Counted from the first letter of the whole stretch, positions 29,710 through 62,243 are shown. The stretch is DNA of 62,243 nt, filler included, from Stramenopiles sp. TOSAG23-6 (GCA_900128565.1; 19 parts of 19 records of this genome joined end to end with filler, not necessarily neighbours in it), one strand, 5' to 3'. Translations and numbers: made by a program. Notes: generated by a model from the sequence alone, not told the origin.

Positions 29710-30835
29710 ATTTCAAAGTCTTTTGATTGAATATAATGAGATTGAAATATAGGATAATAATTCAGCATACTTTTTACTGCGGCATTGAAAGATAAGCAAC
29801 ATGCTTCATGGCAATTCGATATCTCTTGTGAAAAATCACGAAATAATAATGAAAGTATACCAACTCCAGTTTTAGCTAGTAAACAAAGTTCATGATTACC
29901 CTGGCCTATTGGTAGTTCAACAATTTTCTCCAAAATTTTCAAAACAGTAGGGATAAAATTCTTCACAATTTCGATATATATTGAACCATTCGTGGTTGAA
30001 CGCATGTCTTGTGAAAAATATTTCAAAAACAAATCTAAAAAAAATTGTTAGGTACAAAATTTCGTATAAAAAACGTTAGGTACAAAATTTCGTATGAAAA
30101 ACGTATATATCCTGTAGATGTTCAAGACATCTTTTGACTAAAGTGAGAGCTCGGACATGTGTTAGATGACTAAAGACTTTTGTGCCCTCCTCCAGAACCC
30201 ACAGAGACTGAGATACGTATTGTGAAAAATATTTTCAATTCGAAATTCGTTAGGTATGGATTTTCGTACGATAAAAAGTACATTCGAAATTCAATTTTGA
30301 AAACGCACATGAATCGCGGGAAAAGTTCAGCTACAAGAGTATCAGGCACGTCTGAAACCAAAATGCACATACATGAAAGAGCACCTTCTGCTTGACTAGA
30401 ATTTAAATTGTCAGCTTTTTGAATAAGCCCAAATAGACCATCCATGAGCTCGGGCCATTCTTCAGGCCAGTCATTCGAGGCAATCAAGGCAATGCAAACT
30501 GCTGATGCAGTTCTGATTTTGCCACTGGTGTCACTCAAGCCACATGGAATACGCACACGAATGTACGCCTTCTCATCTGCGAGGATAACACGTTCACAAG
30601 CTGTAATTGGTTTCCATCTAGCTTCACAAAGCTGCCTCAGAATGACGCCAGATAATTGCCTCAGTGCAAGGCGAATGCCATTTGTAACTAAGATATCGAC
30701 GAGAGTTCTGGCAAAACCATCAATATTTTTAAAAGATTCTATTGCTTGCTCTGCAGACTGTCGCGTTGTAAGGTCAGGGGATAGAGTTCCTTCTAACACC
30801 CGAAGGGCTTGCATTTGTTGTCCCTCTGTCACCAT
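29710..30835 (-). CDS. IPO9: Importin-9-like karyopherin, 5' part
   Basis: IBN_N-like RQSAEQAI..LRQLSGVILRQLCEARW and IRTASAVCIALIASNDWPEEWPEL. Introns 30308-30215 (GT..GT) and 30106-30004 (AT..AT) keep the frame open. Confidence 0.8.
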
Positions 30836-32990: not shown

Positions 32991-33625
32991 ACACTGATTT
33001 GTTCAGTTCTTGTACAAGTCTACTTAATATTTTTTACTTATTTGCATTTCTATCATCCAGAAAAATTTGCAAATCGTACAACATGGATCCTTCTTTTTTT
33101 TGTAGATTTTTTCTTTTTTGGTTACAGTATATATTGTGCTTTTGCTTTATCCAGCAGAGAATTTGGTATGTTAATGTTCAACTTTTTTTCAATTTCAAAT
33201 TTATTTTTCGTACGAAATTTTGTACCTAACAAAAAAATGAAAAAATATTTTTTCACAATATAGGTACTTGGATCATAGAATCAGATAATGGACAAAGTGT
33301 AGATTCTCAGAAAGAAAAGTATACTGCAGCAAGTGTTCTTATTTGGGGTGCTACTATTACAGCGCTTCATATATTATTACATACCATTGCTATGCTTGGT
33401 TGGTGTATGCCCAATGGAATCAATAATTTAAATTTGTCAAATGGAGAAGAAAAAAATACGAAAAAAAATGAAAAAACTGAGAACAAACACGGGAAAAAGA
33501 AACATGCAAATAAGTCTGATGCGCAAGAAGTTGGACAAAGTGATACATCAAACAAAACAAGTTCAAAAACTTCAGGAGGTAGGTCTGGGAAATCTAAAGA
33601 TTCTTATTTTAGTCAACAAGCATGA
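32991..33625 (+). CDS. Multi-pass membrane protein, 3' part
   Basis: Three hydrophobic segments. Family-type intron 33166-33263 has canonical GT..AG ends and joins REFG-TWIIES. Confidence 0.6.
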
Positions 33626-36272: not shown

Positions 36273-38163
36273 ATTGTCGAGCTGAAATTGCCCCAGAGGA
36301 AAGGAAATATTGTATAGGCTTCCATGCAGTAAGATATTCATCATTTTTATCTTTTTGAATATCTTTTTGGATATCTTTTTTGTTTTCAATTTGGTACAGA
36401 GATAAAAAATATATACAACGCTCTACAATTGCAACAACAGAAAGTTGAGAAAATCCAGATTTTGAGTAATGTTTGCGTTTTTTAGTGCCTTCTTGCCCAA
36501 CAGTCTCAGATTTACGTTTTTTTTTTGGAGATTTCTCAGAAATTGTAAGAAGTTGTGTACATTTGAAAAAACCATTGACAAATGTATTGTGAAGAATATT
36601 TTTTTTTTTTTTTGTAAAATAAAAAATCGTTAGGTACAAAATTTCGTATGAAAATAAAATAAAATCGAAATTGGTAAAAAATTGAAATGAAGACATACAT
36701 GATTCAACAGTTTTCGTCTTTTTGTTATCCACTAAATTAGATACAACTGTAACAACATTTGAATGTTCATGTAAAATGAAAGCCTCCTGATCATCAGAAG
36801 AATCCCGAGAAGGACGAAGACGTTCAGAACGTTCAGAATTGTTTATTTTTGCAAAATGAGAGGCCTCTTTCGCACGAATTCCCAAAACATCTGCCAAATT
36901 CAACGATTTACAAGAAGTGATATTCTGAAACGCAATGTAGTATTGATTGCTTTTTTTACGTTGATAACTCAACGCAACACATGAGCCATCATGTGAAGCA
37001 ATAGGAAAGAATATATTCACATTACCATTTTGTTTTTCATTAAATGCATTTTCGCTGTTTTGTTCAACAACTGCACCATATTTCACATCCCATATTGCAA
37101 ATGTACACGTTTTCGAAAAATTGACAAGGAAAGCTAAATTTGGCTTGACACTAATAATATTCATATTATTTGCTATTTCTGCATCAACTTCGTCAATTTG
37201 GCGCACAAAGGCAATGCGAGTAGGTGAAGAATACCATTTCAAAGTCGTTGACGTTTGAAATTGATGTACTTGCCAGATAACAGATAAAATATTTTTTTCA
37301 TTTTTGCAGATCCACATCAGAGAAACTCGATGAAGCATTTTATGAACCGCAGATGATACACATTTAATTGCATTAATAGGTGCCTGAATATTGTGCTTTG
37401 CACAAAGACAAATTTTTGCTTGATTTTGTTTTCCCATCGATTTGTTTTTATCAACAGTCTGTTCTGTTGTTTTGCGACTCATTTTTCGTATTTTATTTTT
37501 TATTTGTGGTAAAGTAAGCTCAAACGTAAGAAGTACCGCATCATGACATGGTTTATTAGTATCATGAGTATTCTTTTTGTTCTTTTTTTTGGGAATATTG
37601 GTAGAAGCTTGGTTAACTGAGGCCACTAGAAAAAGACCGATTGAGGAATTTTTCAAAGTATTTTCAGCTTCAGACGAAAGTGTATCCATGAATACATCTG
37701 TAGTCATAATACTTTTAATATTTTTTACACCAGATTCACATGATGTAATCTCTTCCATTGTGAAAGCGCTTAAAAGAGACACCGAACCCGTTTTAAATAC
37801 GATAATAATATAATCACCGAGTAAAGAGTTCGTCACAATTTGGTGAATGTTGTATTGAAAACGTTTTTCTTTTAACTGACTCAAACTTTTATCAGACTCA
37901 CCCCAAGAACATATGACTTTACTATCACCCTTCACTGCAAAAAAACGCTTGGAATTACTATGATGAACAGCACTGCCAATAAGAGAGTGGCCACGGAAGG
38001 ACCAACTACAGAGGCATCCATTCCTGTTGTTTGCTTCATGAACTGCAACTTGAGACTCTGAAGTCACAATCAAATTAGACCGGCCTTTAGCATTCAAAGT
38101 CCATGCGAAGCCTGAGAGTCCTGAAAGCGCATGTGTAAGCTGCTGTGGTAAAGTGAGATACAT
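36273..38163 (-). CDS. Probable beta-propeller protein, possibly NOL11/Utp8-like, 3' truncated
   Basis: Long ORF with WD-like strands (CSWSF, ICSWGE, AIWDVKYG) and Lys-rich patches. Contains a stop-free 117-nt intron at 36698-36582. The family call is tentative. Confidence 0.4.
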
Positions 38164-39490: not shown

Positions 39491-41750
39491 ACTGTCATTT
39501 TTTTCTTTACAAGTGGATTATGCATTGATGTATTCAACAAAATTGATGTATTGTGAAAAAATATTTTTTTTTTAGCAAAAAAAATCGTTAGGTATGCAAT
39601 TTCATACGAAAATAAAATGTATGTAAAAAAATCAATTTTAAAAACGTACATGTCTCAGACACAGTTTCACAGAAAGAAACACAAGGATCTGCAACTTTAA
39701 TTTCTACTTCTGAAAATAGACATCGAAGATCATACATGATTGAATCTGCATGAAGTTCACCAGTACTATATATTACGTGTTCTCCAGATTCCTCAACTTT
39801 TGTATGAGCTAATGGGTAACTTTTATTAACATTTCGAAGACCTTCAAGCATTTTTGGTAACTCCGATGGACGCAACGGTTCCACTGCAATTTTAACAACC
39901 GAAATTGTATCAAATACCAGAGGTTTGAAAATGGCAAGAGCTTCGCTTTCACCTGAGGGTACATCTCCAGATGTAGATGAATATGTATTAGCATCAAGAG
40001 AACATACTGTTGCTGTTTTCATGATACTAGCATCAATTCCTTCGAGCATGACTAAATTACCAGCAATGGCTCGAGAAATATTAACTCTATATCGTCCTTG
40101 CATAACAGCAACAGATGTTACTCGACAGGTAACGCAATCTTCTTCATCGTATTCTGAATAACCTTCGCCAAGGACAGATACATTTTGTGCTGGGCTTAAA
40201 GTCCCCGAAAATAAACGCCCAAAAGCTCCAAATGTTTTACCATCCGGGGAAGGAAACATTTTTACTACATTAAACATTACAGGAGCATCAGATTTACATT
40301 GTTTCATAGCAAGGGAAAGAGCTGAGTCTTGTGATCCAGAATATACTCGAGAGACTTTAGTAGGAGCTCCAGTTTTAGGAGTTGGCAAATGATTTGTAAC
40401 CATGCTTACAATTCCTTCGACACGGTGTTTTTGACCAAAAAAACGTGACATGACAATCTTAATTAATGGAGCAGGATCCATTCGTAGTTCTGTTTTTTTT
40501 ACTTTTATATGCAATTCTGATAATGTTTTAGCAAGCTCATCCTCATGTTCACCTAATACTTGCGAATACACCTTATACAGTGGTTCTAATATAAACTCCA
40601 CAAAAGTTCGTTTCATGCTGCTATTCGCCCGAGTTTTAGAAAATTGTCGAGTTTCTGCATCGAAAAATATGTCACCCCAAAGCCTTCGTGCAAAAGCTGT
40701 GGCATCAACATTTCCATGCCATCGACTATAATGTTCCGCAAATGATAATAAAGTGAAACTCCATCCATCAGTACTTGAAGTGAACGCGACATTTCCTAAT
40801 TCAGGTGAAACTCTCGCCGTGGACGAATTAGTACTATTACCCAAAGAAAATGTTGCGAGTATATTATTGACTTCTTGAATGACGTGACATATTTTATGAA
40901 AGGCATCAGTCGGTGGTAATCTTAACTCAGTAATGAGACGATCCATTTTAGACAAAACTAAAGTAATCGGTATTCCTGCTTGACACACATGTTTTAAAAG
41001 TCTCTCTGTTTGCAGCATCACACCTTCAACGACATCTACTACAACAATACAACCATCCGCAGCTCGTAATGACGCTGTTACTTCACCAGAAAAATTTGGA
41101 TGCCCAGGTGTGTCAATAACGTTGAGTAAGAAGTGCTTGCCTCTGATGTCAGGCAGGACTACAGTTATAGGGCAAGCTTTTAAACTTATACCGCGTTCCT
41201 GTTCATCTTTACGAGTATCTGTATAGCGCCTTTGACCATGTAATGGCCACGATTCTTTGTGGGTTTGTTCAATAAGTAAATCCAAAAGACTAGTTTTCCC
41301 GTGGTGTAAGTGACCAACAACAGCAATATTACGAATGAGTGAAGTTGTTTCCATCAAAGTCGTCATGAACTCAAGTGAATAATTAAGCTCTGGAACTTCT
41401 TTCTCCAAAACTGAAAATACTTTGGCTTTGACAGGTTTGATTATTGGCTCTGTAATTGGTTGCGTATCCTCGTCTTCAACACGAGTCTCGGCGTCTGGAT
41501 ATACTTCACTTGCATCTGGATAGTATTGTTTGTCTTCTTGAAGCACGATCTGCTGCCCAGCAGCGGCAGCATTGGTTGCTGCTGCTGCAGAAACATCACC
41601 TAACAGTGCCAATTCATCCCCCTCTGCATCACCACCAGATTCTGGTCCAGATTCGGAATCAGAGCTTTCAGAATCGAACGCTTCTGAGTCAGACCCCGAA
41701 AGTTCAGGGCCAATGTAATTCCCAAACTCGTCATAAAGTTCTTCGTCCAT
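39491..41750 (-). CDS. EFTUD2: U5 snRNP 116 kDa GTPase (Snu114), 3' truncated
   Basis: MDEELYDEFGNYIGPEL, IVLQEDKQYYP, GHLHHGKT, DTPGHPNF, AVEPLRPSELPKMLEGLR, KVEESGEH. First family intron at 39649-39546. Confidence 0.97.
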
Positions 41751-42767: not shown

Positions 42768-44312
42768 TTTTTTTTTTTTTTTTTCAAAGGAATTTTTTTC
42801 CCTAACTTTTTTTTTTTTTTTTTACTAACCAAAAAAAAAAAAAATTAATATTTTTCCAAATTACATCCAGTTTTATTATCTACACTGACTAATGAAGAAA
42901 AAGCTTATATAGATTTGACAATAACTAAAAAAACTAAAAAAACTAAAAAAAACAAAAATTCTACATCTGATGATAGCCCTAACCCTAACAAAAAATCTAC
43001 AAATTCCAAAAATTCCAAAAAACGAAAATCTAAAGATTTATCTAAAGAAATATCAACAGAATCGATTATACCCAACCCTAACCCTAATTCACCAAAAAAG
43101 AAGAAAAAAAAATCACCAAAAAAAAAACACGAAAAATTAACAAAATTGTTTCAAGCAGTACAAAATATTATGCACAATTGTCAAAAACATGAAAAAATAT
43201 TTTTTTCCTTTTACTCAAAACAATTAAAACCATTTGTATCTCAGCATGTGTTATCAAAATTACCAAAATTAACTGACCTTGAAAGAAGTTTTATTTGTAT
43301 GTAGTCAAACATTCAAAACATTTCAAAAAATAATTTCATACGAAATTTTTGTACCTAACCAAAAAAACCAAAAAAATTTAAATTTTTTTTTTTTTCATAC
43401 GAAATTTTGTACCTAACATTTAAAAAAAAATATATAATTAAAGCAGCACAGATGATAACTTATTTGATCCCGGGACACCATCATCTGTTGTTCAACCAAT
43501 CGGGATTGGAAATGTATCTAAAAAGCTAACTCTTTATACTCATCAATTAAAAGGGTTTGAATGGTTATTGTACATGTTTGATAGAGGTATGCATCCAATT
43601 CTTGCGGATGAGATGGGTCTAGGGAAAACCATCCAAACAATTACATGCATGTTTTATTTTTTTCAAATTTTTTATCTACATTTTTTTTTTTTTTGGTAAA
43701 AAAATTTTGTACCTAACAGAAAAAATCAAAAAAAATATTTTTTCACAATTACATTTATTGCTTCATTAAAATTAGATAGAAAGTTACCAGGTACTTTTCT
43801 AATAATAGTTCCACTCAGCGTTATTTCGAATTGGATGATCGAAATCCAACGATGGTGTCCCACATTACGTGCAGTTCGACTTCATGTACGTTTTTGTATT
43901 TCAATTTTTTTTTTTTAAATTTAAAAAAAAAAAAAAAAAAAAAATTTTCAAATAATTTTTTTTTCCCAAAAAAAAAATGTACCTAACAAAATTTAATTCT
44001 TTTTTTTTTTTTTTTTTTCACACAATAAATACCTATGAAAAAACAGAGAGGGACCGCATTCGTGATAGTATCATTCAAGATATGAATGAATTAGATATTG
44101 TTGTTACAACGTATGAAACTGTGAAAGGAAAAGATATGATATCTAGTCTTATTCATCAAACAACTTGGCTTGGTGTTGTGTTGGATGAGGCACATCGCAT
44201 AAAAAATGAAAAAAGTAAAACATCAGTGGTTTTGTCACACATCAAAGCATGTATAAAGATATTATTAACTGGAACTCCATTACAAAATAACATGTATGTT
44301 TTACATTATACC

Positions 44313-44344
<32 letters not shown>

Positions 44345-44362
44345 TTTAAAAAATTTTTTAAA

Positions 44363-44394
<32 letters not shown>

Positions 44395-46126: not shown

Positions 46127-48756
46127 GGAATAATGTCATCAGAATTAGTAATGATGTAAACCAGGCTGCTGATGCGGCGATATCGGCAGCTCGTTGGAAA
46201 TATGAGCAATGTAAAGATAAAACACAAATATCTTTAGAAAAAGTTATTGAAAACACAAATAAACGGAATAAATATAGAGAAATGGAATGTACAGATAAAA
46301 AACTTCGTCGATTAGAAAAATTAAAAGGTGGAATTTCTGCTGCTGTATTAGCCTCACGAAATATTAAATATCCACAATATCCATACACTTCAATATTGGA
46401 CCCTAAAAAGAAATCAAATTTTGATGCATTGAAAAATGATGAATGTCCTCTGTGGCTTGGTGTAGTTTTGTGTAATATGTATTTTGCACACCACATACTT
46501 TCTTATATAGATCAACCCAATGTAGCTGCTGTGAATCGTTCATGTGCGTTTTCATCATTCATTTCAAACGTTATTGTTTTTCATAGAAAATTCTGTACCT
46601 AACAATTATTTTTACTAAAAACAATATTTTTTCACAATACATGGCATGCTATTTTAAACTTACACAAATTAAAAGCTCCACCACCACCTGCAGATTGTGA
46701 AATACCTCTTTTGTTTTATGTGCGTTTACACATATTTTTAAATGAAACTGTACATGTTGAAAATGACATTGAAGATGGCATTGTAATGGATCAAAATGAT
46801 ATAAGAGCTGTTGGGTTACGTTCTGTCAATACTTTATTAGATTGTGGTGCTCATATTCATGATGCAGAGTCTGCACTTGGTAATGAATGGTCAACATCTT
46901 CAAAAATACAAACAAGGCGAGATTCATTTACTGATTTTAATGCTCAAAGCACACCAGGAGAAAATTTTGCATGTGGGATGAAAAAACGAGGAAAAACGAT
47001 ATATACATCTCTGGCTTCTGGTCCAACTCCTCTCTCAGCATTACAAGTATCTGCGTATTATGGAAATAGACATCTTGTAGAAATTCTTTCCCTTCGTAGT
47101 GGTCAATCTTCAGATGTTCGATTATGTTCTGCTTATACATGGTTGCACAGGGGTCATTTACCCAATTTTTCAGCAAAAACCCTAAACAAATCAAAATCAA
47201 ATAGTAATGGTGAAAAATTGCGTAATGATGCGGATGCTACAGTAGATCGGTTTTGGAAACAAGAAATGGCAAAACTAAAAAGTCAGGGCCTATTTCAGCT
47301 ATTACCTAAATGTGATTTTAGAAAATCTGTACAAATGGCAAGATACTGTAGAAAGAAAAATTCATTAGATATCATTTCCATTATTCAAAATATGTTGGTT
47401 ACAAATGAAAACAATGCGAAACAATGGTTAAAAGATGAAAAGGTGACTTTGTTTAACATCAAACGTAAAGAAATGCATTCAAAAACTGAATATTTAGTTG
47501 CTAAAGCGAGAATGAAAGAAGCTTCTGAAATGGCTCTCATTGCTTCGAATTTTGCCTCAGAACAAGTAATCAAAGCTAAAACCCAAGTAAAACATGCTGT
47601 TGAAGTAGCCGAAGCTTCCAAAGCTGCCGATGAACTTTTTTCATTATTGGATGCCACTGAATTAAATAGTAAATCGAATTCTAGTAAGAAGAAGAAGAAG
47701 AAGAAAAAAAAAAAGAAAAGGTGTAAAAATAATGATAATACTTGTATTTTTCAAAAAAATGTAACCCCAACAAATGAAGAAGAAGCTTTAAAACAAGTAT
47801 CCGAAGTTTCTATTAGAAAAACTATCGATCTTGAAAATATGGAAAAAAATCGTGAAAAAAAAGAAGAATTGCGTAAAGTAGAAGAAGAGAAAATAAAACA
47901 AAGACGAGCAATAAAGGAAGCGAAACAGAAAGACAAAAAAGCTCGAAGGAAACTGATAAAAACTATTATTGGGATGTGGCCTGTTGTGGTTGAAAATGAT
48001 TTGAAAGAGAAAACAAATTTATTATCAACAGAAGAATTTACAGAACTTGTGCAGCGTGGGGATCTTCATGAAATTCGGAGTTTTGTACTTGGTAAAGATG
48101 TTGCCGAAGCATTACGCGATGTAGAACATTTAAAGATGAAAGAAAAATCTAAAAATGAAATGAATATCAATACATCTAAAACAAAAGATGAAGTTGAAAA
48201 AATAGAATCTGTAGAATCATTGGCTTTACGACAAGCAATTCAAGAAGTAGACCGCTTAAAAAAAGAAGCTGCTGCAGTTGCTGTTGCTGCTGAAGAAGAA
48301 GTGGCGCGAATTCGTGCTGATGCAAATACTAGGGTTGATTCTCAAGTAAAGGCTAAATTGCAAGCTTTGGAAGAGGAAATGGCAAATCTTCGAGCAGTAC
48401 ATCAACAGGAAAGAGTTAGCCCAAAATTTCAAAGAGCTAGTCCAACGTTTCATCAAGTACCATCGCAGTATGCTTTCGTACCAAATTTAGTACCAACTCA
48501 ATATCCAGCCAACATTGGTTTTGTCCCACTTGGTATGCCACCCGCTCCAATACATTATGGATATCCACCTATCTCACCTGTTGATTTTCAATTTGAGAAG
48601 ACAGATAATATAAAAGTCGGTGGAAACTTCTGTATAGGACCAGGATCGTTTTACTATCATGCCCTAGGTCCAAATGCTATACCAACAGCAGCGAACCTAC
48701 CTCCTGACTTTAAAGCTAGAAATTCGCTGTATCATCATAACAACAATGTTGGATGA
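46127..48756 (+). CDS. Large hypothetical protein, 3' part, with an ankyrin-like motif, poly-K, coiled coil and Pro-rich tail
   Basis: SALQVSAYYGNRHLVEIL is ankyrin-like. Upstream exons are delimited by family introns (motifs near 46078 and 46596). Confidence 0.7.
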
Positions 48757-49019: not shown

Positions 49020-49140
49020 ATGTAGAATGTAATGTAAAATGTAATGTAAAATGTAATGTAAAATATAATGTAAAATGCAATGTAAAATGTAATGCAAAAA
49101 TATAATTGTAAAATGTAATGTAAATGTAAAATGAAATGCA
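49020..49140. repeat. AATGT/AAAATGT microsatellite
   Basis: Repeating TGTAATGTAAAA units. Confidence 0.8.
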
Positions 49141-49204: not shown

Positions 49205-49808
49205 NNNNNNNNNNNNNNNNNNNNNNNNNNNNNNNNNNNNNNNNNNNNTTAATTAATTAANNNNNNNNNNNNNNNNNNNNNNNNNNNNNNNNNNNNNNNN
49301 NNNNATGCAGCGAACGAGAATCGAAACAACCACCTTTGATTCTTGATGTTTTTTGATGGGGCATCAAAGTCTTATTTGTTTTAACACGAAATTTTGATGT
49401 GACTTTATTTGTTTCAGCCTTGGTATGCGTTGAGGGTACCGTAGTACGTGGACGTGGACGTCGTGGTCCTGTCTGTTCGTGTTGATGTTGACACATCATC
49501 TCTCACGAGTGGTACCTTATCCGAGTACGAGTCAATAAAAAAAAAAATTTCGATTTGGATTTCTTCATTTCGTGTTTTATAAAATTAAATTTTAGCAAAA
49601 TTAAATTTATCTCAAAAATCAAATGTTTCAAAAAATCCCAAAATCATCAATAGTAGGTCCTGGTTACAACGCCGGCCTTGAAAAGAGAACTGATACTGAT
49701 CAACAGCATCGCTCTCTTGAAGTGTATTCCCATTAAATATAAACGACTCGTGATCAGAAACTCGATAAGCAAAGAATCATAAAACATAATTCCAATATAT
49801 AGTGGGAA

Positions 49809-52416
49809 ATGGGGCTTCATTCAGATCCTGAGACTTCTGTTCGCGTTGCACTCCGCGTTCGACCGATGATCGGACAAGAAAAAGTAAATCGTTGCCAAGC
49901 CTGCATAAAGTGTGTAGAAGGAAAGCCACAGGTTATCATGGGTAAAGACAGAGGTTATACGTTTGATTATGTATTTAGCCCTGATACAGGATATCAAAAA
50001 GAAGTATATGATAAGACTGTGCAACCACTAATAGACGCTTGCTTTGCCGGTTTTAACAGCACTGTTGTAGCATATGGACAGACTGGGTCAGGGAAGACGT
50101 ATACTATGGGTAGCGAATGCAAAAGTGTTTATTTAGATGACGAAGTCGGTATCATTCCACGTGCAATTGCCGCACTCTTTGACCTTATTGCATTGGCAAA
50201 GCAAGAAAATGATGCGGCNCAATTTCTTATTCGCGTATCTTTCATGGAGTTATATGGGGACTCTTTACGTGACCTATCCCCTTCGAGGAAACGAAACAAT
50301 ACTGTACAAATACGTGAATGCAATGGTGAATTGATTACTATTGGATGTGACGAGTGTATCGTGTCATCACCAGCAGATACATTGGCTTTCCTTGAACATG
50401 GTTTGATGCTTCGGACAACCGCCAGTACTTTGATGAACCATGTATGTTTTACTTTTTTTCAATTTTGTCTATAAATATTTTTTCGTACGAAATTTCGTAC
50501 CTAACAAATTGTACAAAAAAAAATATCTTTCACAATACATACTTCGAGTCGTTCACACGCAATTTTTACTATATTTTTGGAACAAGACTTGGGCAAAGAA
50601 ATGCGTAAATCTAAATTCCATTTCGTTGATCTCGCTGGATCTGAAAGAGCAAAGCGAACAGGCGCAGTAGGCTTACGTTTGAAAGAAAGCATGTATGTTT
50701 TATTTTTTTTTCAATTTCGAATTTTTTTTTCATACGAAATTATTTTTCTTGAAATATTTTTCCAAAATACATTAACATCAATTCTGGATTATTAGCTTTA
50801 GGTAATGTTGTATGTTTTATGATGAATAATTTTAAAAAAAAAACATACCAAATTTTGTACCTAACGATTTTTTAAACCAAAAAAACAAAACTTTTTACAT
50901 TATATATATCAGCACTCGGTGACGATAAAAAACGAGGGCGCGTGCATATTCCTTATAGAGATTCAAAACTTACTAGATTACTTCAAGATTCGCTTGGTGG
51001 AAATAGCCGAACTTGTGTAATAGCGTGCGTATGTTTTTAAAATTATTTTTTTTACCTACAATTTTTTTTTCGTACGAAATTTTTTACCTAATATTTTTTT
51101 TTATATGTCTCACAATACATGTTTCACCCGCTGACATTAATTTTGAAGAAACATTAAGTACTTTGAAATATGCTAATCGTGCACGAAATATTAAAAACCG
51201 ACCCGTGAAGAATAAGTGTAAATCCTCCGAAATCAATTCTTTGAAACGTCAAATTGCAGAATTGAAAAAAACAATGGATGACACTCTAAAAAATAACGGA
51301 AAGGATAATAGTACATGTACGTTTTCATTCGTTTAAAAAAAATGTTAGGTACAAAATTTCGTATGAAAANAATTTCAGATCTTAATATTTTTTTTCAAAA
51401 CATTTCAATTTTTATTGACAAATTTCACTTGTAAAACATATTTTTTTACAATACATGTAATGACACGAAATCTAGTGAAATGACGATGACTCTATTAAAG
51501 GTGGCGAAGGCTGAAATTAAACGTTTGCGTGTTTGTTTTCATCATGAATTTCAAATTTATTTATTTCATATGAAATGTTGTAGGTAACATTTTTATTTAT
51601 TTTTTTCCAAAAATATTGTATCTAACAATTTCGTTGTAAACATTTTTTTACAATACATGTGGAGAACAAGACACTTTCTGCTGAATTAGCAAAATGCAGA
51701 ATTCGTGCACANAATATCGAAGATAATGATGAAAATTATTATAAANGTGAAANTCATTTATTAAAACCAAATCTCAGTAAAAGATCATCAACTGGGCACA
51801 AAAGTGATAAAAATATCATAACAATGAAATCAAATGGTTCAAAAAAAATAAATAATTTTAGTAAGACCATTGTGAATTGTCAATCTAAAAATTTCAAAAA
51901 AAATGAAAATCATCAAAAAGATGTGGAGAGAAAATCCAATATTGACGTAGTAGTGCAAGAACTTGAAAAGAATCTAAAAGAAAAAGAAAATCTTATGACA
52001 GAATTAGAAAGAAGATCAAGAAAATATGAAAGTTTGAAAAAAGAATATAGGGAAAAGATGTATGTTTTCAAAATTAATTTTTTTTTTTTTTTTGTACGTT
52101 TTTTCGTACGTAATGATTTTTTTTTCAAAATTAATTTTTTAATCTCAATTTTTTTGTACCTTACAAAAACAATTTTATCTCAATTTTTTTTTCGTACAAA
52201 ACTTCTTACCTACCAATTCTGTTTTTGAGTGTCTATTTCATATACATTTTCAAAATTGATTTTTTTATCTCAATTATTTTACTACAAAATTCTGTACCTA
52301 ACGAACTTGGAATGTAAAATATCTTTCTGTACTCTATGCAACATATGGACCACCAAATCCAAGTTGCAATGAAAGAACGGGATACTTTATTATATGAACT
52401 TTCTCAAATGGAGCAT
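49809..52416 (+). CDS. Kinesin-4-type motor (KIF4/KIF21/KIF27-like), 3' truncated
   Basis: [118 protein letters not shown]. Confidence 0.93.
50442..50540 (+). other. Non-canonical GT..AT intron, family type specimen
   Basis: 99 nt, contains an in-frame stop and no AG dinucleotide. Removal restores kinesin switch [10 protein letters not shown]. Confidence 0.92.
50810..50905 (+). other. Non-canonical GT..AT intron with a register-informative junction
   Basis: GTT|GTATGTTTT..CATTATAT|ATA restores GNVISAL. A 2-nt upstream shift would give GNDISAL. Confidence 0.88.
51029..51120 (+). other. Non-canonical GT..AT intron
   Basis: TGC|GTATGTTTTT..CACAATACAT|GTT restores IACVSPAD. Confidence 0.9.
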
Positions 52417-52749
52417 GTATGTTTTATTTTTTTTTTAACAAAAAAATCGAATTTATTTTTCGTACGAANNNNNNNNNNNNNNNNNNNNNNNNNNNNNNNN
52501 NNNNNNNNNNNNTTAATTAATTAANNNNNNNNNNNNNNNNNNNNNNNNNNNNNNNNNNNNNNNNNNNNAAATGATTTTGAATATGATCCAGACAATGACT
52601 ATGATGATTTAGGAAAATTTTGCTCAATGGATTTTTTCATTATTAATTTTTTTTTTTTTTTTTTTTTTGGTTTTCAAGAAAAAATTAAAAAAAAAAAAAT
52701 TGGAATTTGAAATTTGAAATTTGAAATTTGAAATTGAAATGAAACATAC

Positions 52750-54278
52750 ATTGATCGTGTACACGTAAAATGACGTCATTTTGATGTTCAACTTGACCGA
52801 CAATCATTGCAATTGGTTCATTACTTCCTTCAACCATATTCACATTATTTGTTTCTGTTGTGACAATTTCTGTTGTGACTTTCATAGTATCTTGGTTTTG
52901 TTTCTTTACTAGTGGATGTGTAAATAAACTGTGATTTCGTGTTCTATAGGCTCTCATACGAAATTCACCATTTCTTGTTGGAAGTAACGTTTCAGCCACA
53001 AACACGAAATCTGCTTTTTTATTTTTTATTTTTTTTGTTTTTTTTATTTTTTTTATTTTTTGTTTTTTTTTTATTTCTTTTGTTTTTGTACCAAAATTTG
53101 TACTTTTTTTCATTGTTGAAAGAATTTGTCTCTCAAATACTTTATTTGTACTATTTGATATAAATGTAGGATTTTGTGACAAAACTGCTCGTAAAGCATT
53201 AGGAACTGCAGAATACGAAGCTAAAAGTGAAACTGCCTCCCAGACTGAAAATGGTGGAATCAATCCTGTAGGGTTAGGGTTAGCAAAAAAATGTCCAAAA
53301 TTTTCTTTGTTCATTTGTGTATAGTTTTTCAAAGCTGATGAATTCATCATATCATCTATATAATCCATATATTGTGAAAAAAATGTATATTTGTTTTTTT
53401 GTAAGTACAAAAATTTGAAAAAAAATTTTGAAAAAAAAATTTTGAAAAAAAATTTTGAAAAAAAAATTAAAATGTTTGTTAGGTACAAAATTTCGTATGA
53501 AAAAAAAAAAAGATTTTTTTTTTTTAACGTACATGCTCAGAGGAAGAACAACAAGTTCAGCAGAATATCCACAAAAAAAATCATTTGTTGTATCATTATG
53601 TTGACCCCCTACAGTACTTTTTATAGTTACACAACTTATTTTTTTGGTCATCTTTTCCAAATATTGAGCATGTGTGTCTGATGGCATACATTCGCTTGAT
53701 GTTTGTTTCGAATTTTGTTTTGAATTTTGGTTAGTTTGGTTAGTTGTGTTTCTGTTCAAAACATGTGTGTCTGATGGGATACATTCGCTTGATGTTTGAT
53801 TCGAATTTTGGTTAGTTTGGTTATTTTGGTTAGTTTGGTTAGTTTGGTTCATTGTGTTTCTGTTCAAATGAGATTCTTCTTCGTCTTGTGTAGTCTCGCA
53901 CAGTGTAAAATATAACGGCCGAATGGTCAATAAATTCCAAAATGGTTTGCCATCTTTACGATAATTCAAAATCACCACACGTACAGGTTGTGGGGGATTT
54001 TGGGATAAAGCTTTTCTGATGGTTGCTTTTGTAGTAGCGTCTGTATGTTCACCTTGTAGAAAGTTACATTTAGTGTTCATCACTTCACTTTTTTTATAAC
54101 CAGTAAAAGTAGAAAACTCATCATTTACATAAATTATATTTTCTTTTGAATCTGTGATGACACGAAGTATAGGAAGGTCTACTGGAATTGATTGTATTGA
54201 AGAGCTCCCTGAATAATTACAACAACTATCTAAGCAGAACATATTTTTTTGTGTGCGCGTTGAAACACAAGTTGTCAT
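52750..54278 (-). CDS. LOV (PAS) domain - GTP cyclohydrolase II (RibA-like) fusion; exons 54278-53533 and 53366-52750; 3' truncated
   Basis: LOV: IIYVNDEFSTFTGYKKSEVMNTKCNFLQGEHTD..ILNYRKDGKPFWNLLTIRP. GCH II: AETLLPTRNGEFRMRAYR..EPIAMIVG..VILRVHDQC. The GT..AT intron 53532-53367 joins AGC AT|G GAT in frame. Confidence 0.8.
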
Positions 54279-55887: not shown

Positions 55888-56260
55888 GCCATCCAAAGAG
55901 ACTATAGGAGAATACGATTCCATGCCATGTGACCCTGTCCACAACCAAGAACGTTCTGAATGGGTCTTGCGGTGGTTACGCATAGCAGAGCTCATTGAAA
56001 AAGAGTCAAAACATGCAAAGCTTGTGTATGTAACATTACCATTTCCTCGGTCATGGATGAAACCTTCAAATTGGTTAGGATTCGTAGATATGTATGTTAG
56101 GGTTATCACGATTTTTTTTTTTTTTTTTTGTAGTAAATTTTGTACCTAACAAAAATAATTTTTAAATATTTTTTTACAATATATGTTATCCAAGAATATC
56201 AAGGGATCGGTTGTTTTTGTAAGAGGAAATGGTCGGGATTGTACGATTAATGTTGTATAA
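55888..56260 (+). CDS. SLC12 cation-chloride cotransporter C-terminus
   Basis: LIEKESKHAKLVYVTLPFP..FVDM|LSKNIKGSVVFVRGNG. GT..AT intron at 56092-56184. Confidence 0.75.
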
Positions 56261-56430: not shown

Positions 56431-57634
56431 TCATATAACATTTTCACTCACCTCTTGAGATTTTGCAATTGCAATGACTGGATTTTGTTGTTGAAATGGT
56501 GTTCTTTTACCATCCTCTTTAATTTCTATACTTTTATTTGATAAATCATTTACATCATTCGTATTGATGTCTGATTGTGTTGTACTAAAAGAATTTCTAA
56601 CTTTTGAAGAAAAATCATCCAAATGGGCTGCAATGTGGTGACTTCGAACTCCCGCCGAGTGGCTAAAAACAAGTATCAATGTAACTAAGGTCAAAATGCC
56701 TAGGAAGCTACCAAATAAAACAACGGTCACGTCATTTATCAAATGTCCATTATTTTTATCGACTCGCTTTTTTAACCATACAAGTAACACATGTATTTTG
56801 GAAAAATATTTCAAAATTTTTTTACCAAAAAAAAAAAAAAAATTTGTTAGGTACAAAATTTTTTTGAAAAAAAAAAATCGATTTTTTTTTTTTTCGGTTA
56901 AAAAAAAAAAAAAAAATAAAACATACATATACTAGAACTAGACAGAGTAAAGGTAAAACACCAAATAATAATCCTTTTTGATATTGTTTACAACGAATTT
57001 GACTTGCAGAATTATTAAATTCTTCAGAAGCATTTTTGATCTCCTTTGATTTTTCAAGTATGCTCTGTAATTTATTACCTCGGACGAGAAGTACATGTAT
57101 TTTGGAAAAATAGTTGAAAAAAATCTAAAAAAAAATGTTAGGTACAAAATTTCGTATGAAAAAAAAATCATACAAAAAAAAAATAATAAAACATACATCA
57201 ACACTATCTTTGATTGTTCGTTTCAAGTCTTGTAACTTGTCCTTCACTCGTAAGGCTACATGTTTGTCTACCGCAGAGTTCCAATACAACACAGCTTGTT
57301 TCATATCTCTTTTAGCTGCATCTCTACCCCTATTTTCGCCGTCGATGATTGCTCGTGCGTCTTCTAAATATGAATAAATGTAGCCTAATTTTTCTGGTTT
57401 GAATGACTCACAAATACAAGCGTAAATCATGCCGTTGCACGGGTCTGCATAAATGGCTAGTAATAAGTCTGTTGTTTTACCAGGTAATATACATGATACT
57501 TTACTTCCTGCTTGTGGTAATTGCACCTGCTCCAGCAAATCCGCTGTAACTATGGGTGCTTCATGTCCATCTATTGTCACACATTCTCGAACGTGTACAT
57601 GATTAGCGTACACGGCATTCACAATACTAGCCAT
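56431..57634 (-). CDS. Longin R-SNARE (VAMP7-like) with two hydrophobic segments; exons 57634-57197, 57094-56927, 56790-56431
   Basis: Longin-like N-terminus (MIYACIC). SNARE motif VKDKLQDLKRTIKDSVD|VLLVRGNKL has the zero-layer Arg. Both introns are GT..AT. Confidence 0.7.
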
Positions 57635-59186: not shown

Positions 59187-60276
59187 TTGGATAGTTTTGG
59201 GTATGCTGCAAGATATTCTTTTGGAAAACCAGGAGCTGGATCTTGCCAAAATCCACAACGAAAAAAATTCAGTAGACAGAAAAAGTATACATCACCAAGA
59301 GTCATTATTTATTTTTGGAAAATATTTTCAAAAATTTAAAAAAAAATTGTTAGGTACAAAATTTCGTACGAAAAAAAAATTTGTAAAAAAATAAATTTGA
59401 AATTGATCAAAAAAATGGAATTGAAATTTCGTATGAAAATGAAAACAACGAAAACAAACGTATCTCCACAAAGAAATTTGTCACCGCATGCAGCTTCAAT
59501 TTTTTTGAAATATTCAGTACATGCACCTCCTTCAACAAATAATGCAGCTCGTGCTGCTGATTTTTCGTTTGCGTCAGTGATACTAAACGTTGACCGGAGT
59601 TTAGAAAGAACATCATCTCTACTCTTTGTGAAAATGGGTCAAAAACAAAAAAAATCGTTAGGTACAAAATTTCGTACGAAAAAAAAATAAATTTGAAATT
59701 CATGATGAAACAACGTACAACACGTCAATCATTTCATCCACTTGAAACGCCTTGTAAAAACTATACACAAGATGTCAAATATACAACAAATCAATACAAA
59801 ATCAAATAATAAATAGTATCATATTGTTAGTTACGGTATAGCAAATACATGGATCTGAAGGGTAGAGTGTTGATTTTCCGTCCAAGCTTACAAATTTTCC
59901 AAAATAGCGACACATTGCCTTACTCTGAGTCAATTGAATTCCATTGTCCTGTTGAAGAAATGGCATTTGACCCCATTTTGACAATTTTTTCAAGTCGCCA
60001 TTTTTCCATTCACCATGTAATGTAAATAATATTGTAAGGATACTTGAAATGAATACGTAATGGAGTACATATTGATCTGTTGAGTGTACAATTGAAGTAA
60101 ACATTGTAATATTGAATGCACAAAAGAGTAAATACAAAACCAACACGATTGTCTTCAAAGTCAAACTCTCCAAGTTGAAGCAATAAACGAACTGGTTCAG
60201 CCATTGCTGGGATTCCAAAATAGAAAAGCTTCATNTTGCCTTCTGGGCGCTGTGCTTGAGCAGCAGTGAGACTCAT
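59187..60276 (-). CDS. Glutathione S-transferase (sigma-like), multi-exon, 3' truncated
   Basis: KLFYFGIPAMAEPVRLLL..FEDNRV, KWGQMPFL, LTQSKAMCRYFGK, LYPSDP, AFQVDEMID, TLGDVYFFC. Confidence 0.88.
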
Positions 60277-60503: not shown

Positions 60504-62243
60504 ATGAAAAGTTTATACACAAATAATATGTTCTTTCCTGTGTTGTTCATCAGTGTATTACTTACAAGTCATTTAAGGCATATCTATTGTGCACAAAATG
60601 TGTCGTACAAACATCAAGCTAGAGAAATGCACTCTTCAGTGGCTACACGTTTGACAACTTCCCCTTGGGCTCAAAATGGACGTTCTCCGCAAAANACGTC
60701 ATCTGGTTTGATTCCTGTCGCACATAACTCGTTTATTATTCATCAATACGTAGACCCAACCAAAGAAGTGACTACTGCTATTATTGGTACCGGAGATCTC
60801 ATTTACTTTACTGAATCTGTACATGGAATTGTGTATTGTATTCGTGCAAGTGATCGAAACATTGAATGGACTACTCATCTTGANCACTCTGTGTATTCAA
60901 CACCCGCACTAAGCACTGATGGTACATTGTACATTGCGTCAANCAATGGNATNTATGCCTTGGATAGTCTTAATGGAGAGGTACAATGGAGATACACTGG
61001 ATGTCCAAATGCAGGATTGTCTAGTCCAACAATTGGAAATGATGGTACAATATTTTGTGGATGTCNAGATGGAACNTTTCACGCAATTTCCNCAGCAGGN
61101 GAGACATTATGGACATATTCAACGAAAGCCAGTATTGACTCTTCACCAGCTCTGTCACTNAATGGTCAATTCGTATATTTTGGTAGTAATGATATGAATT
61201 TTTATTGTATTAATATATTCAATGGGGAAGAAATATGGATATTTCGTGGAAATGCTCAAATTGCCTCTTCGCCATCTCTATCTCTTGATGGTGAAACTAT
61301 TTTTTTTGGTACCGATGATAAGAAAATGTATGCTCTTAGTGCAAAGAATGGAAAAATACAATGGATCTTTCAAACAAATGGCGCAATGTCGACCTCATTT
61401 GCATTAAGTCCTAAAGGNGATGTAATATATAGTGGATGTACGTTATCGTTATAGATATCAATTTAAAAAAAAAAAATTGAAATTTTTTTTTCAATTTTTT
61501 TTTTTTCATTTTTTTTTCAATTTTTTTTCCGATTTTTTTTCTAACAATTTTTTTTTTTAAATATTTTTTTACACAATATGTTCTCATGGATTTTTATATG
61601 CAATTTTTGTATCAACTGGAAAAGCAAAATGGATTCACAAGGCTGGTGTGCCTCTATACGCACCAACAACTGCATTTCNTTCTGACGTTTCTAACCCTAA
61701 CCCTAACCCTACTAAAAAATTTCAAAAAACTAAAAAAATTCAAAAAATTCAAAATCAATATGTTATTTTTTATGGTTCAGATTCATTGTTTACTGCAATT
61801 TCATCAATTGATGGAAGTGTATTATATTCAATACAACAAGGTAATGCATCACATGTCGGTACATCAATTGATGCAAATGGTCAAATTCATTATGTATGTT
61901 TTACTTTTTTTTTCAATTTGTGTTTTTTTAGTCTAAAGTTTTTTTTCGTACGAAATTTTGTACCTAACAATTTTTAATTTTTTTTTTTGAAATATTTTTC
62001 CAAAATAAATGGAGCTATGTCGATTGGGCTTACCGCTGGCCACGTGGCATCTGCAATACATCAATCAAAATTATTTCAATTTTCAAATCAAGATCAAAAA
62101 GCAAATATATTACTTTCAAATATATGTGATTTGAAAACAATTTCTGGAGAATCAAAAATAATAAAAACTTCTTCTGTTGATGAAAATAAAATTTCAGATA
62201 GAGAAACAACAGAAGCAGCAGCAGAAACAGAAAGACAACAAAG
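60504..62243 (+). CDS. Secreted PQQ/BamB-like beta-propeller repeat protein, 3' truncated
   Basis: Signal peptide and repeats SSPALSxDGxxxYFGSxDxxxYAL..GxxxW. Family introns near 61440 and 61895. Confidence 0.85.

Follow-up and report, generated by a model that had tools for sequence, protein, structure and literature searches.

Likely introner-like introns ending mostly in AT in the genes of a MAST-3-like stramenopile

The window and its kinesin gene

The window, by which we mean the whole stretch of 62,243 nt analysed here, is made up of 19 short contigs with N linkers between them; two contigs duplicate others, which leaves 17 unique ones. The assembly carries amplification artefacts, with one palindromic contig besides the duplicates. 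A Snu114/EFTUD2 gene is present as a 726-codon open frame, and its best match in a search was labelled MAST-3-like, with stramenopiles among the next named matches. On this one available label, the host of the AT-ending introns described below is probably a MAST-3 stramenopile. A diplonemid origin was weighed since single-cell marine diplonemids have been reported with non-canonical introns (PMC12621601), and was dropped because of the EFTUD2 matches.

One contig carries a kinesin-4-like gene whose conserved, otherwise open exons are interrupted at eight positions or more (Table 1). A first-pass annotation had singled out four consecutive segments of this gene as introns reading GT...AT, and both their positions and their sequences hold. 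The absence of any AG, which it had claimed for the first two, extends to all four. The ending ATAYAT that it ascribed to the whole set is found in introns 1, 2 and 4 (...AATACAT), whereas intron 3 ends in ...CATTATAT. When P0121, a 62%-identical homologue, was used in tblastn, the matches left gaps of exactly 33 codons at intron 1 and 32 codons at intron 3, and abutted at introns 2 and 4. Exon 3 contributes 13 residues, split codon included, which occupy the Pfam positions between 251 and 266. Judged by these alignments, it is confirmed that splicing out introns 1-4 makes the exons consecutive, without gap or overlap, in both the Pfam Kinesin profile and P0121, as the claim of a rebuilt conserved protein required. 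Further downstream, 51465-51530 in exon 6 aligns with P0121 residues 389-410, and residue 496 spans 52060 and 52336 across intron 7. A search for transcript-derived proteins of the same organism that would cross the kinesin junctions, with exon 1 against longer proteins and with exon 2 against proteins of near lengths, yielded only relatives of at most 71% identity.

Table 1. Kinesin exons and introns, and other introns of the window. Pfam positions in the kinesin rows refer to the PF00225 profile after intron removal.
Feature	Positions	Strand	Details
Kinesin-4-like exon 1	49803..50441	+	open from 49803; Pfam Kinesin 1-196; P0121 residues 4 onward; partial RNA cover by X10 record 1 and X11 record 3
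Kinesin intron 1	50442..50540	+	99 nt, GTATGTTTT...CACAATACAT, no AG; permitted termini CA..TA, AT..AC, TG..CA, GT..AT
Kinesin exon 2	50541..50692	+	Pfam 198-251
Kinesin intron 2	50693..50772	+	80 nt, GTATGTTTT...CCAAAATACAT, no AG, no CTAAC box
Kinesin exon 3	50773..50809	+	37 nt; 13 residues aligned to P0121
Kinesin intron 3	50810..50905	+	96 nt, GTATGTTTT...CATTATAT, no AG; permitted termini TG..TA or GT..AT only
Kinesin exon 4	50906..51028	+	Pfam 266-303
Kinesin intron 4	51029..51120	+	92 nt, GTATGTTTT...CACAATACAT, no AG; permitted termini GT..AT, TA..TG, AT..GT
Kinesin exon 5	51121..51316	+	Pfam 304-327; P0121 317-368
Kinesin intron 5	51317..51456	+	140 nt, GTACGTTTT...TACAATACAT; core box antisense; 8-nt repeat TACATGTA at both ends; junction in RNA
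Kinesin intron 6	51531..51658	+	128 nt, GTTTGTTTT...TACAATACAT; frame test
Kinesin intron 7	52060..52337	+	278 nt, GTATGTTTTC...GTACTCTAT; several partial element copies inside; permitted termini AT..CT, TG..TA, GT..AT, TA..TG
Kinesin intron 8	52417..52468	+	5' part only; contig ends within element
Family intron	4824..4923	+	GTACG...CCAAAATAAAC; AC in family register; end uncertain by whole codons
Family intron, GA 5' end	5058..5221	+	...CACAATAAAT
Related intron ending AG	5451..5586	+	GTATATTTTC...ATTATAG
Family intron, GG 5' end	6142..6277	+	...CCAAAATACAT; AT..AC also possible
Family intron ending AG	33166..33263	+	CACAATATAG
Family intron, GC..AT	43647..43754	+	SNF2-type gene, palindromic contig; frame test
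Family intron, GT..AT	43886..44030	+	SNF2-type gene; frame test
Family intron	46544..46642	+	GTGCG...CACAATACAT; joined open frames 147 and 703 codons
Family intron, GT..AT	56092..56184	+	TACAATATAT; frame test not decisive
Family intron, GT..AT	61894..62010	+	CCAAAATAAAT; frame test tied
Family intron	59307..59459	-	GTTTG...AAAAATAAAT; unshiftable boundary, GT..AT only
Family intron, GT..AT	57095..57196	-	possible alternative: in-frame AG 30 nt upstream of end
Family intron, GT..AT	56791..56926	-	frame test
Family intron	53367..53532	-	GTACG...CACAATATAT; joined open frames 251 and 226 codons
Family intron, GT..AT	39546..39649	-	follows the EFTUD2/Snu114 open frame
Family intron, GT..AT	36582..36698	-	joined open frames 488 and 124 codons
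Family intron, AT 5' end	30004..30106	-	AT..AT, or AT..AC two bases left
Family intron, GT..AT	29065..29216	-	CACAACACAT
Family intron, GT..AT	28789..28921	-	frame test
Family intron, GT..AT	28371..28464	-	possible alternative: in-frame AG 33 nt upstream
Family intron	26517..26616	-	GTACA...CATAATACAT; frame test
Family intron, GT..AT	15550..15688	-	joined open frames 230 and 398 codons; duplicate 8960-9098
Family intron, GT..AT	14284..14373	-	exon ends GAG; duplicate 7694-7783
Family intron ending AG	14045..14146	-	CCAAAATATAG; unshiftable boundary; duplicate 7455-7556
Family intron, GT..AT	13737..13834	-	frame test; duplicate 7147-7244
Family intron, GT..AT	13474..13566	-	duplicate 6884-6976; possible alternatives: two in-frame AGs, at 15 nt and at 57 nt upstream
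Family intron, GT..AT	12780..12891	-	frame test
Family intron, GT..AT	12516..12630	-	CACAATATAT

Intron ends, reading frames and RNA

Almost every spliceosomal intron ends in AG. We curated 31 introns in the window and allowed every boundary shift that yields an identical mRNA; boundaries were ambiguous by 1-8 nt in 27 of them. Even so, AG was possible as the 3' end in 3/31 only, so that this hallmark of U2-type introns fails in 28/31 under any equivalent boundary. GT..AT fits 25/31, and AT..AC fits 16/31. Read in the family register, 27/31 end in AT, one in AC and three in AG (5451-5586, 33166-33263 and 14146-14045), the first two of these three being the rare AG-enders at the same register to which the first-pass annotation had drawn attention; further AT-enders comprise one at locus L001, on a metagenome contig, and four in the window. 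Both ends are variable, the 5' end being also GA, GG, GC or AT and the 3' end also AC and possibly GT.

The reading frames point the same way. Of the 26 curated family introns that were frame-tested, 21 had a joined open frame that was clearly longest in the GT..A[T/G] register (P = 9e-7 for at least 21/26, with chance at 1/3), and in the remaining five (50810, 56092, 61894, 59459 and 39649) this register was tied (two) or slightly lower (three). All 26 are in sense orientation to their open frames. No frame-preserving AG occurs in 15 of the 28 non-AG introns between 30 nt inside the intron and 60 nt into the next exon, and a stop-free in-frame AG lies upstream in three AT-enders. When Pfam was run on intron flanks, a shared family was found for the SNF2 pair only and for none of four other pairs; junctions outside the kinesin and SNF2 genes are defined by open frames only. 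The flanks of 43886..44030 are roughly consecutive in PF00176 (upstream 34-84, downstream 101-168, with 17 leading residues unaligned). Taken together, frame test, Pfam, P0121 and boundary shifts show that most of the GT...AT segments are unable to end in AG and that their removal restores frames and conserved protein sequence, and they support the view that the segments are real introns.

In RNA, compared over 49305-51711, record 11 of the poly(A) metatranscriptome run X13 (216 nt, 0 mismatches) joins 51311|51452 exactly, across kinesin intron 5, and AG occurs in none of the nine possible cut positions. This is the sole junction among the matches listed, none of which bridges kinesin introns 1-4; a lack of cover in that list carries no weight against them. 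Evidence from RNA is thin: besides this one non-AG junction, unspliced copies are found in the RNA libraries. In X9, 623 contigs match, and their summed depth of up to 8521 on intron segments as compared with 0-8 on exons speaks for the repeat family described below; record 13 of this run goes unspliced from kinesin exon 1 into intron 1. Record 2 of X10 and records 7-10 of X13 are element copies, and in X10 record 2 and several of the X13 copies the loose ends carry the flanks of other loci. These unspliced copies may represent pre-mRNA, DNA carry-over or real retention, which are indistinguishable here, and the contig joining 51311|51452 could be DNA from a strain that lacks the insertion. 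As the mRNA is identical under the GT..AT and AT..AC registers, junction reads cannot separate the two.

A repeat family with its own splice signals

Twenty copies taken from unrelated genes have a median pairwise identity of 67% and a maximum of 89%, as against 44-45% for shuffled sequences. The exact 9-nt core GTACCTAAC occurs 47 times, among 58 loose matches, in 62 kb, and the density is about one copy per 1.3 kb, with copies of about 80-170 nt that are sometimes nested. By our own tally over the window, copies or partial copies lie on 16/17 unique contigs, and in several contigs the end falls inside a copy. When metagenome contigs were scanned for a 20-nt pattern from the core, a single locus, L001, was found. 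That the introns belong to one repeat family had been overlooked at first pass. The ends of the element are short inverted repeats, (AT)GTAT(G)TTTT on the 5' side and AAAATAC(AT) on the 3' side, and a direct repeat spans the boundaries (AT in 24/31, YAT in 20/31, up to 8 nt in one copy). We infer that this AT/YAT repeat is a target-site duplication.

Signals and flanks were counted over 31 introns, namely 30 from the window and the L001 copy. Of these, 29/31 begin with GT, with GTATGT or GTACGT in most copies and GTATGTTT as the family consensus; GTATGT is the optimal U2-type 5' site, suited to U1 and U6, as in yeast. The upstream exon ends in AT in 24/31 (background 8.6%, P = 4e-20) and in CAT or TAT in 20/31, and the downstream exon starts with G in 16/31 (P = 7e-5). 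Most introns end in CAT or TAT, and the 3' A(C/T/A)AT is conserved. In most copies the CTAAC branch-like box GTACCTAAC, followed by T runs, is found 29-56 nt before the end; it is not essential, since kinesin intron 2 lacks it. The AT that is used is never the first one past the box (3-12 ATs lie between, one copy with a loose branch pattern beside its 3' end being left out), and something besides the dinucleotide must therefore act. The extended 3' motif may define the 3' splice site, as the first-pass annotation had proposed. Alternatively, because all derive from one repeated element, the conservation of TTTTC(C/A)A(A/C)AATAYAT in these introns may be a mark of recent shared ancestry and not of constraint on function.

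We consider it likely that the segments are copies of an introner-like (MITE-like) non-autonomous family spliced GT...AT in a MAST-3-like stramenopile, probably by the major (U2-type) spliceosome. Such a family would have spread among the genes of an AT-rich marine eukaryote, each copy bringing its own splice signals: a yeast-like U2-type 5' site GTAYGTTTT, U-rich tracts, in most copies the branch-like box TTTTGTACCTAAC, whose presumed branch A lies about 29-56 nt before the end, and a 3' end conserved as TTTTC(C/A)A(A/C)AATA(C/T/A)AT. The RNA would be cut directly before GT and directly after the terminal AT. The last two or three bases of the upstream exon (YAT) would recur as the last two or three of the intron, so that taking out the element plus one repeat copy would restore the coding sequence, a logic also seen in introners that co-opt a target-site duplication. 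The major spliceosome would presumably remove the copies by tolerating U in place of G as the last base, and the extended motif, or a factor bound to it, would pick the 3' site.

It is unlikely, though less so than the readings that follow, that these are U12-type introns of the minor spliceosome which a transposon has multiplied, a route proposed for Physarum. That spliceosome accepts varied ends, GT-AT and a first base of A or G included; both ends vary in the AT-ending family, and its 3' motif TTCCAAAAT (-13 to -5) bears a loose likeness to the U12 branch motif TTCCTTAAC, sought as TTCCTT[G/A]AC near the 3' end. However, the U12-diagnostic CC at +5/+6 is GT here, so that the U12 5' motif is absent. 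In most copies the best branch-like box (TACCTAAC, CTAAC) is 29-56 nt away from the end; U12 branch sites are not known to lie so far from it. An Rfam search of the 62-kb window gave no match and no snRNA, the window being too small for this to count against minor snRNAs, and it holds no U2AF gene.

The study of Physarum polycephalum (bioRxiv 10.1101/2020.10.12.336362) describes a mass creation of U12-type introns by a proposed transposon with inverted ends and a 2-nt direct repeat (TA), a layout that resembles the present family. The consensus GTATGTTT agrees at 6/8 positions with the U12 5' motif [G/A]TATCCTT and at 7/8 with the Physarum variant GTATCTTT, and GT-AT is among the non-canonical ends of that species (bioRxiv 10.1101/2020.10.12.336362). 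There, however, GT-AT makes up 17% of non-canonical U12-type introns, themselves a 0.8% class, whereas it is the rule here, and Physarum has C at +5 and its branch A 9-12 nt from the 3' end, in contrast to G at +5 and the more distant box in our family (bioRxiv 10.1101/2020.10.12.336362). For the stramenopile Blastocystis, minor introns are described in the hundreds, 77% being AT-AC (bioRxiv 10.1101/2022.09.24.509304); AT..AC fits 16/31 of the present introns but is impossible in 15/31.

More improbable still is that the copies belong with the 'nonconventional' introns known from euglenids, hemistasiids or Amoebophrya, their removal being guided by pairing of their ends and possibly spliceosome-free. 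Those are likewise repeated introns of marine protists, with inverted ends, non-GT-AG termini and boundaries overlapped by direct repeats of 3-5 nt, a layout like the one observed here, where the end dinucleotides also vary (Amoebophrya introners, PMC7789003; diplonemids, PMC12621601). In minimum-energy folds of six copies GUAU pairs with AUAC in three, forming a 4-bp end helix. The folds are nevertheless weak (-4 to -12 kcal/mol, with five of six z-scores between +0.1 and -1.2), short of a stable structure joining the ends, and the end pairing of only about 4-7 bp compares with inverted repeats of 8-20 nt, or strong pairing, in the known cases (PMC7789003; PMC12621601). There is no compensating change either: GTAC variants retain the partner A, and the base opposite G1 is C, A or T. 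In these sources, nonconventional introns are described as lacking preferred end dinucleotides, canonical 5' sites or a CTAAC box, in contrast to the uniform GT..AT, the canonical GT in 29/31 and the GTAYGT and CTAAC of most copies here (PMC7789003; PMC12621601).

We regard as equally improbable a mixture of classes, in which AT-preceded copies would be cut AT..AC, a few GT..AG and the rest irregularly. AT..AC is a known compatible terminal pair; it would fit 16/31 introns and give the GG variant 6142-6277 canonical ends, and the upstream exon ends in AT in 24/31. Such a mixture would need two or three cut registers on one conserved element. The seven copies without an upstream AT still have the same element ends, 59459-59307 permits GT..AT only, and kinesin introns 3 and 4 rule out AT..AC. 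In addition, to our knowledge no known 5' consensus matches the 5' site ATGTATGT which AT..AC cutting would use.

Least probable is that the segments are lost or missing at the level of DNA rather than RNA (as ciliate-like internal eliminated sequences or insertion polymorphisms), or that they are never removed, the genes being broken or the assembly faulty. In favour, the single joined contig could come from an insert-free allele, RNA libraries contain unspliced copies and the assembly has a palindromic contig and duplicates. Against this, 26/26 frame-tested copies lie in sense with spliceosomal signals, neither of which DNA excision requires, at least eight positions of one conserved kinesin are interrupted between exons that are otherwise open and conserved, and sequencing error is ruled out because the same pattern occurs in more than 30 places. 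DNA runs of another study contain 0.23-0.34 of the contig's sampled words, which may also speak against it.

Known systems and meaning

The GT...AT family most plausibly read as introner-like shares much with introners of Micromonas, Aureococcus, Symbiodinium and Florenciella, which are high-copy, short, similar introns in unrelated genes, with short inverted ends, a direct repeat at the boundary and their own splice signals, AT-richer than exons, and whose removal gives back the original coding length (PMC9860276, PMC12130899). It differs in that the families described there are GT/GC/GA...AG, whereas the usual 3' end here is AT. In the 2025 introner survey, families whose sites were mainly non-canonical were hand-checked, and those without transcript support were discarded (PMC12130899).

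The first-pass annotation held that bulk exceptions in other lineages have different signatures, which applies only in part to Fritillaria. The Fritillaria report describes introns that abandon GT-AG in bulk, many of them with AT or AC at the end, U-rich tracts in most intron classes, and a large AG/AT class in which a YAY triplet both precedes the 5' site and makes up the final three bases of the intron, the same repeat logic as YAT|GT...YAT| here (PMC13326754). Fritillaria introns mostly start with AG, however, and have many end classes, whereas here the 5' end is GT in 29/31 and only the last base departs; moreover, Fritillaria is an animal with duplicated U2AF subunits and our organism is a protist (PMC13326754). 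Introner transposons with weak splice sites have been named as one possible origin of divergent sites (PMC13326754).

Our literature searches on MAST-3, uncultured stramenopiles and Incisomonas turned up no description of a GT...AT intron family, supplementary splice-site tables lying outside the search, and no such lineage among the matches listed for GT-AT or transposable non-canonical introns. The few lineages that break the AG rule in bulk (Fritillaria, Amoebophrya, euglenids and some diplonemids) show many mixed end types or have 5' sites that are altered too. In the present family the change seems confined to the last base; it is uniform and is carried by a young repeated element with otherwise ideal signals.

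The one existing gene model compared, P0001, lacks five open-frame blocks, two of them bounded by GT..AG within the open reading frame, and continues into the GT..AT intron. Gene finders that require GT-AG will mis-model such genomes, and published gene counts and functional profiles may therefore be distorted.

More tentatively, and leaning slightly against it, we suggest that in an abundant lineage of marine heterotrophic stramenopiles the 3' dinucleotide of the major spliceosome may have moved from AG to AU for most introns, driven by a transposon burst whose AT (YAT) target-site duplication forms the last intron bases. If this is true, U at -1 must be acceptable to the lineage's step-2 active site and to its U2AF-type factors, and with 5' and branch sites that stay textbook it would be the cleanest natural split of 3'-end recognition from the remaining splice code. 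Such a lineage would offer a simple natural system for 3'-end choice and for the reshaping of a splice code by a transposon.

A family of repeated introns in a MAST-3-like genome

The AT-ending introns are copies of one repeat family, a kinship that the first-pass annotation had not seen. Twenty of them, 80-125 nt long and taken from unrelated genes, have a median pairwise identity of 67% (maximum 89%), as compared with 44-45% in five shuffle controls (maxima 0.58-0.61). A 9-nt core, GTACCTAAC, usually found within TTTTCGTACGAAATTTTGTACCTAAC, has 58 loose matches, duplicates counted, and 47 of these are exact. The family has a density of about one copy per 1.3 kb, and several contigs break off inside a copy, as expected where an assembler meets a high-copy repeat.

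The consensus consists of an exonic (Y)AT followed by the intron start GTAYGTTTT, a T-rich stretch, the palindrome TTTCGTACGAAA, TTTTGTACCTAAC, T runs and the intron end GAAATATTTTTC(C/A)A(A/C)AATA(C/T/A)AT, after which the next exon begins with (G). GUAUGUUU, UACCUAAC and the 3' motif would be the candidate partners for snRNA pairing. An Rfam search of the window gave zero matches. Flanks were counted for 30 window introns and one copy on the metagenome contig L001 (31 in all). The upstream exon ends in AT in 24 of them (background 8.6%) and in CAT or TAT in 20 (background 3.6%), and 16 downstream exons open with G (background 19.7%). Most copies carry a branch-like A 29-56 nt from the intron end. 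Several ATs come after this A before the one that is used, so that the first AT is passed over; an AG lies between the branch-like A and the used end in seven copies, one of which is an AG-ender.

Telomere-like repeats were noticed in or beside elements, once in frame in an apparent exon (PKNPNPNSS). They may be captured telomeric repeats or mark another element family, one whose ends bear TTAGGG. A 57-nt unit is repeated three times in tandem on L001 (see table).

Linkers N44-TTAATTAATTAA-N44 separate the 19 contigs that make up the window, each roughly 3.2 kb long; measured per 2 kb, GC ranges from 24% to 43%. No base differs between contigs 16480-19669 and 19770-22959, and 6600-9795 is 99.5% identical to 13190-16379 (9 mismatches and 2 gaps); these pairs may be assembly duplicates or alleles, and no difference in intron presence or absence was found between the members of either. 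Contig 42768-45939 is its own perfect reverse complement (3172/3172 bases), as expected of a chimera from whole-genome amplification, and half of it is unique sequence. The organism reads as a marine MAST-3-like stramenopile, mainly from the MAST-3-like source label of one database protein, P0001. This protein is the closest match to the EFTUD2/Snu114 open frame (612 of 613 aligned residues identical), and the second-best match is 59% identical. The first-pass annotation had proposed EFTUD2 and Rab21 for phylogenetic placement; EFTUD2 provides this label, and the matches at 47-54% identity include many stramenopiles together with plants and animals at similar identity. The kinesin contig sequence is present in small DNA runs, seawater metagenomes and metatranscriptomes.

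Boundaries of the introns

In the kinesin-4-like gene, the sequences and coordinates of the four introns first noted are borne out by the sequence, and the absence of AG remarked for the first two extends to all four. Their common ends hold in part: all four start with GTATGTTTT and three finish with AATACAT, but the third finishes with CATTATAT. Translated singly, the exons match positions 1-196, 198-251, 266-303 and 304-327 of the Pfam Kinesin profile, exon 3 (37 nt) supplying the 13 residues between the blocks 198-251 and 266-303. Aligned by tblastn, the homologue P0121 (62% identical) is interrupted by exactly 33 codons at intron 1 and 32 at intron 3, and its matches adjoin each other at introns 2 and 4. 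In total, no fewer than eight family-type introns lie in the gene. Intron 5, which has the RNA support described below, holds the family core in antisense between sense-type ends, which suggests nested or rearranged copies. Upstream of the gene, tandem 12-nt units look like the family's 3' end motif.

Coordinates of introns, end variants, gene models and repeats (window positions, or L001 where stated)
Feature	Position	Strand	Remark
Kinesin intron 1	50442-50540	+	
Kinesin intron 2	50693-50772	+	
Kinesin intron 3	50810-50905	+	
Kinesin intron 4	51029-51120	+	
Kinesin intron 5	51317-51456		family type
Antisense core, intron 5	51340-51365		GTTAGGTACAAAATTTCGTATG
Further kinesin intron	51531-51658		family type
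Kinesin intron 7	52060-52337		end CTCTAT; P0121 alignment
Truncated kinesin copy	from 52417		
Tandem 12-nt units	49027-49063	-	TTTACATTACAT
SNF2 intron	43886-44030		flanks roughly consecutive in PF00176
5' variant	5058		GA
5' variant	6142		GG
5' variant	43647		GC
5' variant	30106	-	AT
5' variant	6403		AT; contig end
3' variant	4923		AC
3' variant	30215	-	possible ACGT
EFTUD2 open frame	39588-41768	-	726 codons
Block omitted in P0001	41635-41582	-	GT..AG bounds inside ORF
Block omitted in P0001	39841-39689	-	GT..AG bounds inside ORF
Intron read through in P0001	39649-39546	-	GT..AT
TTAGGG/CCCTAA repeat	5300-5320		
TTAGGG/CCCTAA repeat	5800-5960		
TTAGGG/CCCTAA repeat	56092-56110		
TTAGGG/CCCTAA repeat	~12600	-	
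TTAGGG/CCCTAA repeat	L001 ~2298-2340		
57-nt unit, three in tandem	L001 1863-2030		GAATGGGTTTGTTTGTATACTTCAAGGTAATAAAC...

In a curated set of 26 introns, duplicates left out, whose two ends carry the family motifs, we compared the 3' registers by how long an open frame each allows through the junction. The family register (GT..A[T/G]) was clearly best in 21 (P = 9e-7; chance 1/3), and in the remaining five it was tied (two) or slightly lower (three). Four additional window copies pass the same test, with ends GC..AT, AT..AT and, twice, GT..AT. When every mRNA-neutral shift was allowed for 31 window introns, GT..AT was a possible end pair in 25, AT..AC in 16 and GT..AG in 3, and the 3' dinucleotide could be AT in 27 and AG in 3. 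The copy on L001, the sole locus that the core motif picked out in a scan of metagenome contigs, is an additional AT-ender. Alternative AG sites were sought among the 28 non-AG introns, from 30 nt inside the intron to 60 nt into the next exon: 15 have no frame-keeping AG, three have one upstream that is in frame and stop-free, and ten have one only downstream, the use of which would delete codons. The first-pass observation of introns ending in AT is confirmed, and in most copies the end is truly other than AG. Of the two copies starting with AT, neither visibly ends in AC when read in the family register, and one is cut off by the end of its contig.

RNA matches and an annotated gene model

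Four RNA runs were compared with the kinesin region (49305-51711). Record 11 of run X13, an assembled contig (poly(A), 216 nt, 0 mismatches), joins 51158-51311 to 51452-51513 with 140 nt absent. The presence of TACATGTA at both ends of this gap makes nine cut positions equivalent; GT..AT and AT..AC are among them, and none gives an AG end. An RNA check of the kinesin junctions, as originally suggested, has yielded one non-AG junction (51311/51452), the sole one among the matches listed; the four introns first named are unbridged among them. In principle, the joined contig could be DNA of an insert-free allele. Exon 1 continues into intron 1 in record 13 of run X9, and element copies also occur in record 2 of run X10 and records 7-10 of X13; loose ends with flanks from other loci (X10 record 2 and several X13 copies) indicate that those copies are unspliced. 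They could represent pre-mRNA, DNA carry-over or true retention. In X9, a metatranscriptome run, 623 contigs lie almost wholly on intron segments, with a summed depth of at most 8521 as compared with 0-8 on exons; possible sources are DNA in the library, abundant unspliced RNA or introns that persist after excision. RNA support for GT...AT splicing is thin.

P0001 is a gene model that was built on the sequence studied here; its annotated CDS lacks five in-frame EFTUD2 blocks (10, 13, 15, 18 and 51 residues) and reads through a GT..AT intron until a stop. A pipeline bound to GT-AG appears to have missed a real intron and invented false ones.

Proposed removal of the element and comparison with known systems

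We consider it probable that a transposon-like intron family is spliced at GT...AT in this MAST-3-like stramenopile. An introner-like non-autonomous element would bring its own U tracts and branch box along with a strong 5' site of U2 type, and its removal from RNA at GT...AT would take the element together with a single (Y)AT repeat out of the message. The sense-only orientation, the conserved spliceosomal signals, the restored frames and the one RNA junction argue for removal at the RNA level and of spliceosome type. The major spliceosome would be the presumed agent, the (Y)AT repeat may be a target-site duplication, and the 3' site could be chosen by the extended 3' motif or by a factor bound there. 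In yeast and human spliceosome structures, the first and last G of an intron pair with each other, and the A before the last G pairs with the branch A, so that a terminal U would need some change in this lineage.

A Physarum-like spread of U12-type introns by a transposon is unlikely: in the accessible text on Physarum, GT-AT introns are known and the variant 5' motif differs from ours by one base, but the family lacks CC at +5/+6 and its best branch box is too distant from the intron end. Nonconventional removal guided by structure seems improbable. Direct and inverted repeats do exist, the 5' GTAT(G)TTTT being an inverted repeat of the 3' AAAATAC, but the ends pair weakly and the 5' site is canonical; folds of -4 to -12 kcal/mol have z-scores of +0.1 to -1.2 in five of six introns, and no compensating changes in the end pairing were found among family variants. 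We would likewise give little weight to a mixture of AT..AC and GT..AT registers: 16 of the 31 introns allow AT..AC and the other 15 rule it out. DNA-level loss, or segments that are never removed, is very improbable given orientation and conservation.

In the accessible parts of introner surveys, families are GT/GC/GA...AG, and one survey dropped mainly non-canonical families unless transcript-confirmed (PMC9860276, PMC12130899). According to the portions available, 95% of Fritillaria introns are non-GT/AG (AG/AC 18%, AG/AT 16%), a YAY triplet precedes the 5' site and recurs at the intron's other end, and the non-AG ends are bound by U2AF paralogues that have diverged (PMC13326754); the YAY repeat logic is like that of our family, whereas the 5' end is unlike. 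Amoebophrya and hemistasiid diplonemids are described, in the passages at hand, as having no preferred dinucleotide and strong end pairing (PMC7789003, PMC12621601). The words 'splice' and 'canonical' are absent from the main text of one paper on single-cell genomes of MAST (PMC5778133), and the family is undescribed in the literature covered on MAST-3, Incisomonas, GT-AT, introners and non-canonical introns, with subscription journals mostly and supplements wholly outside this scope. The GT...AT family is best read as a novel version of introners and of bulk non-canonical splicing.
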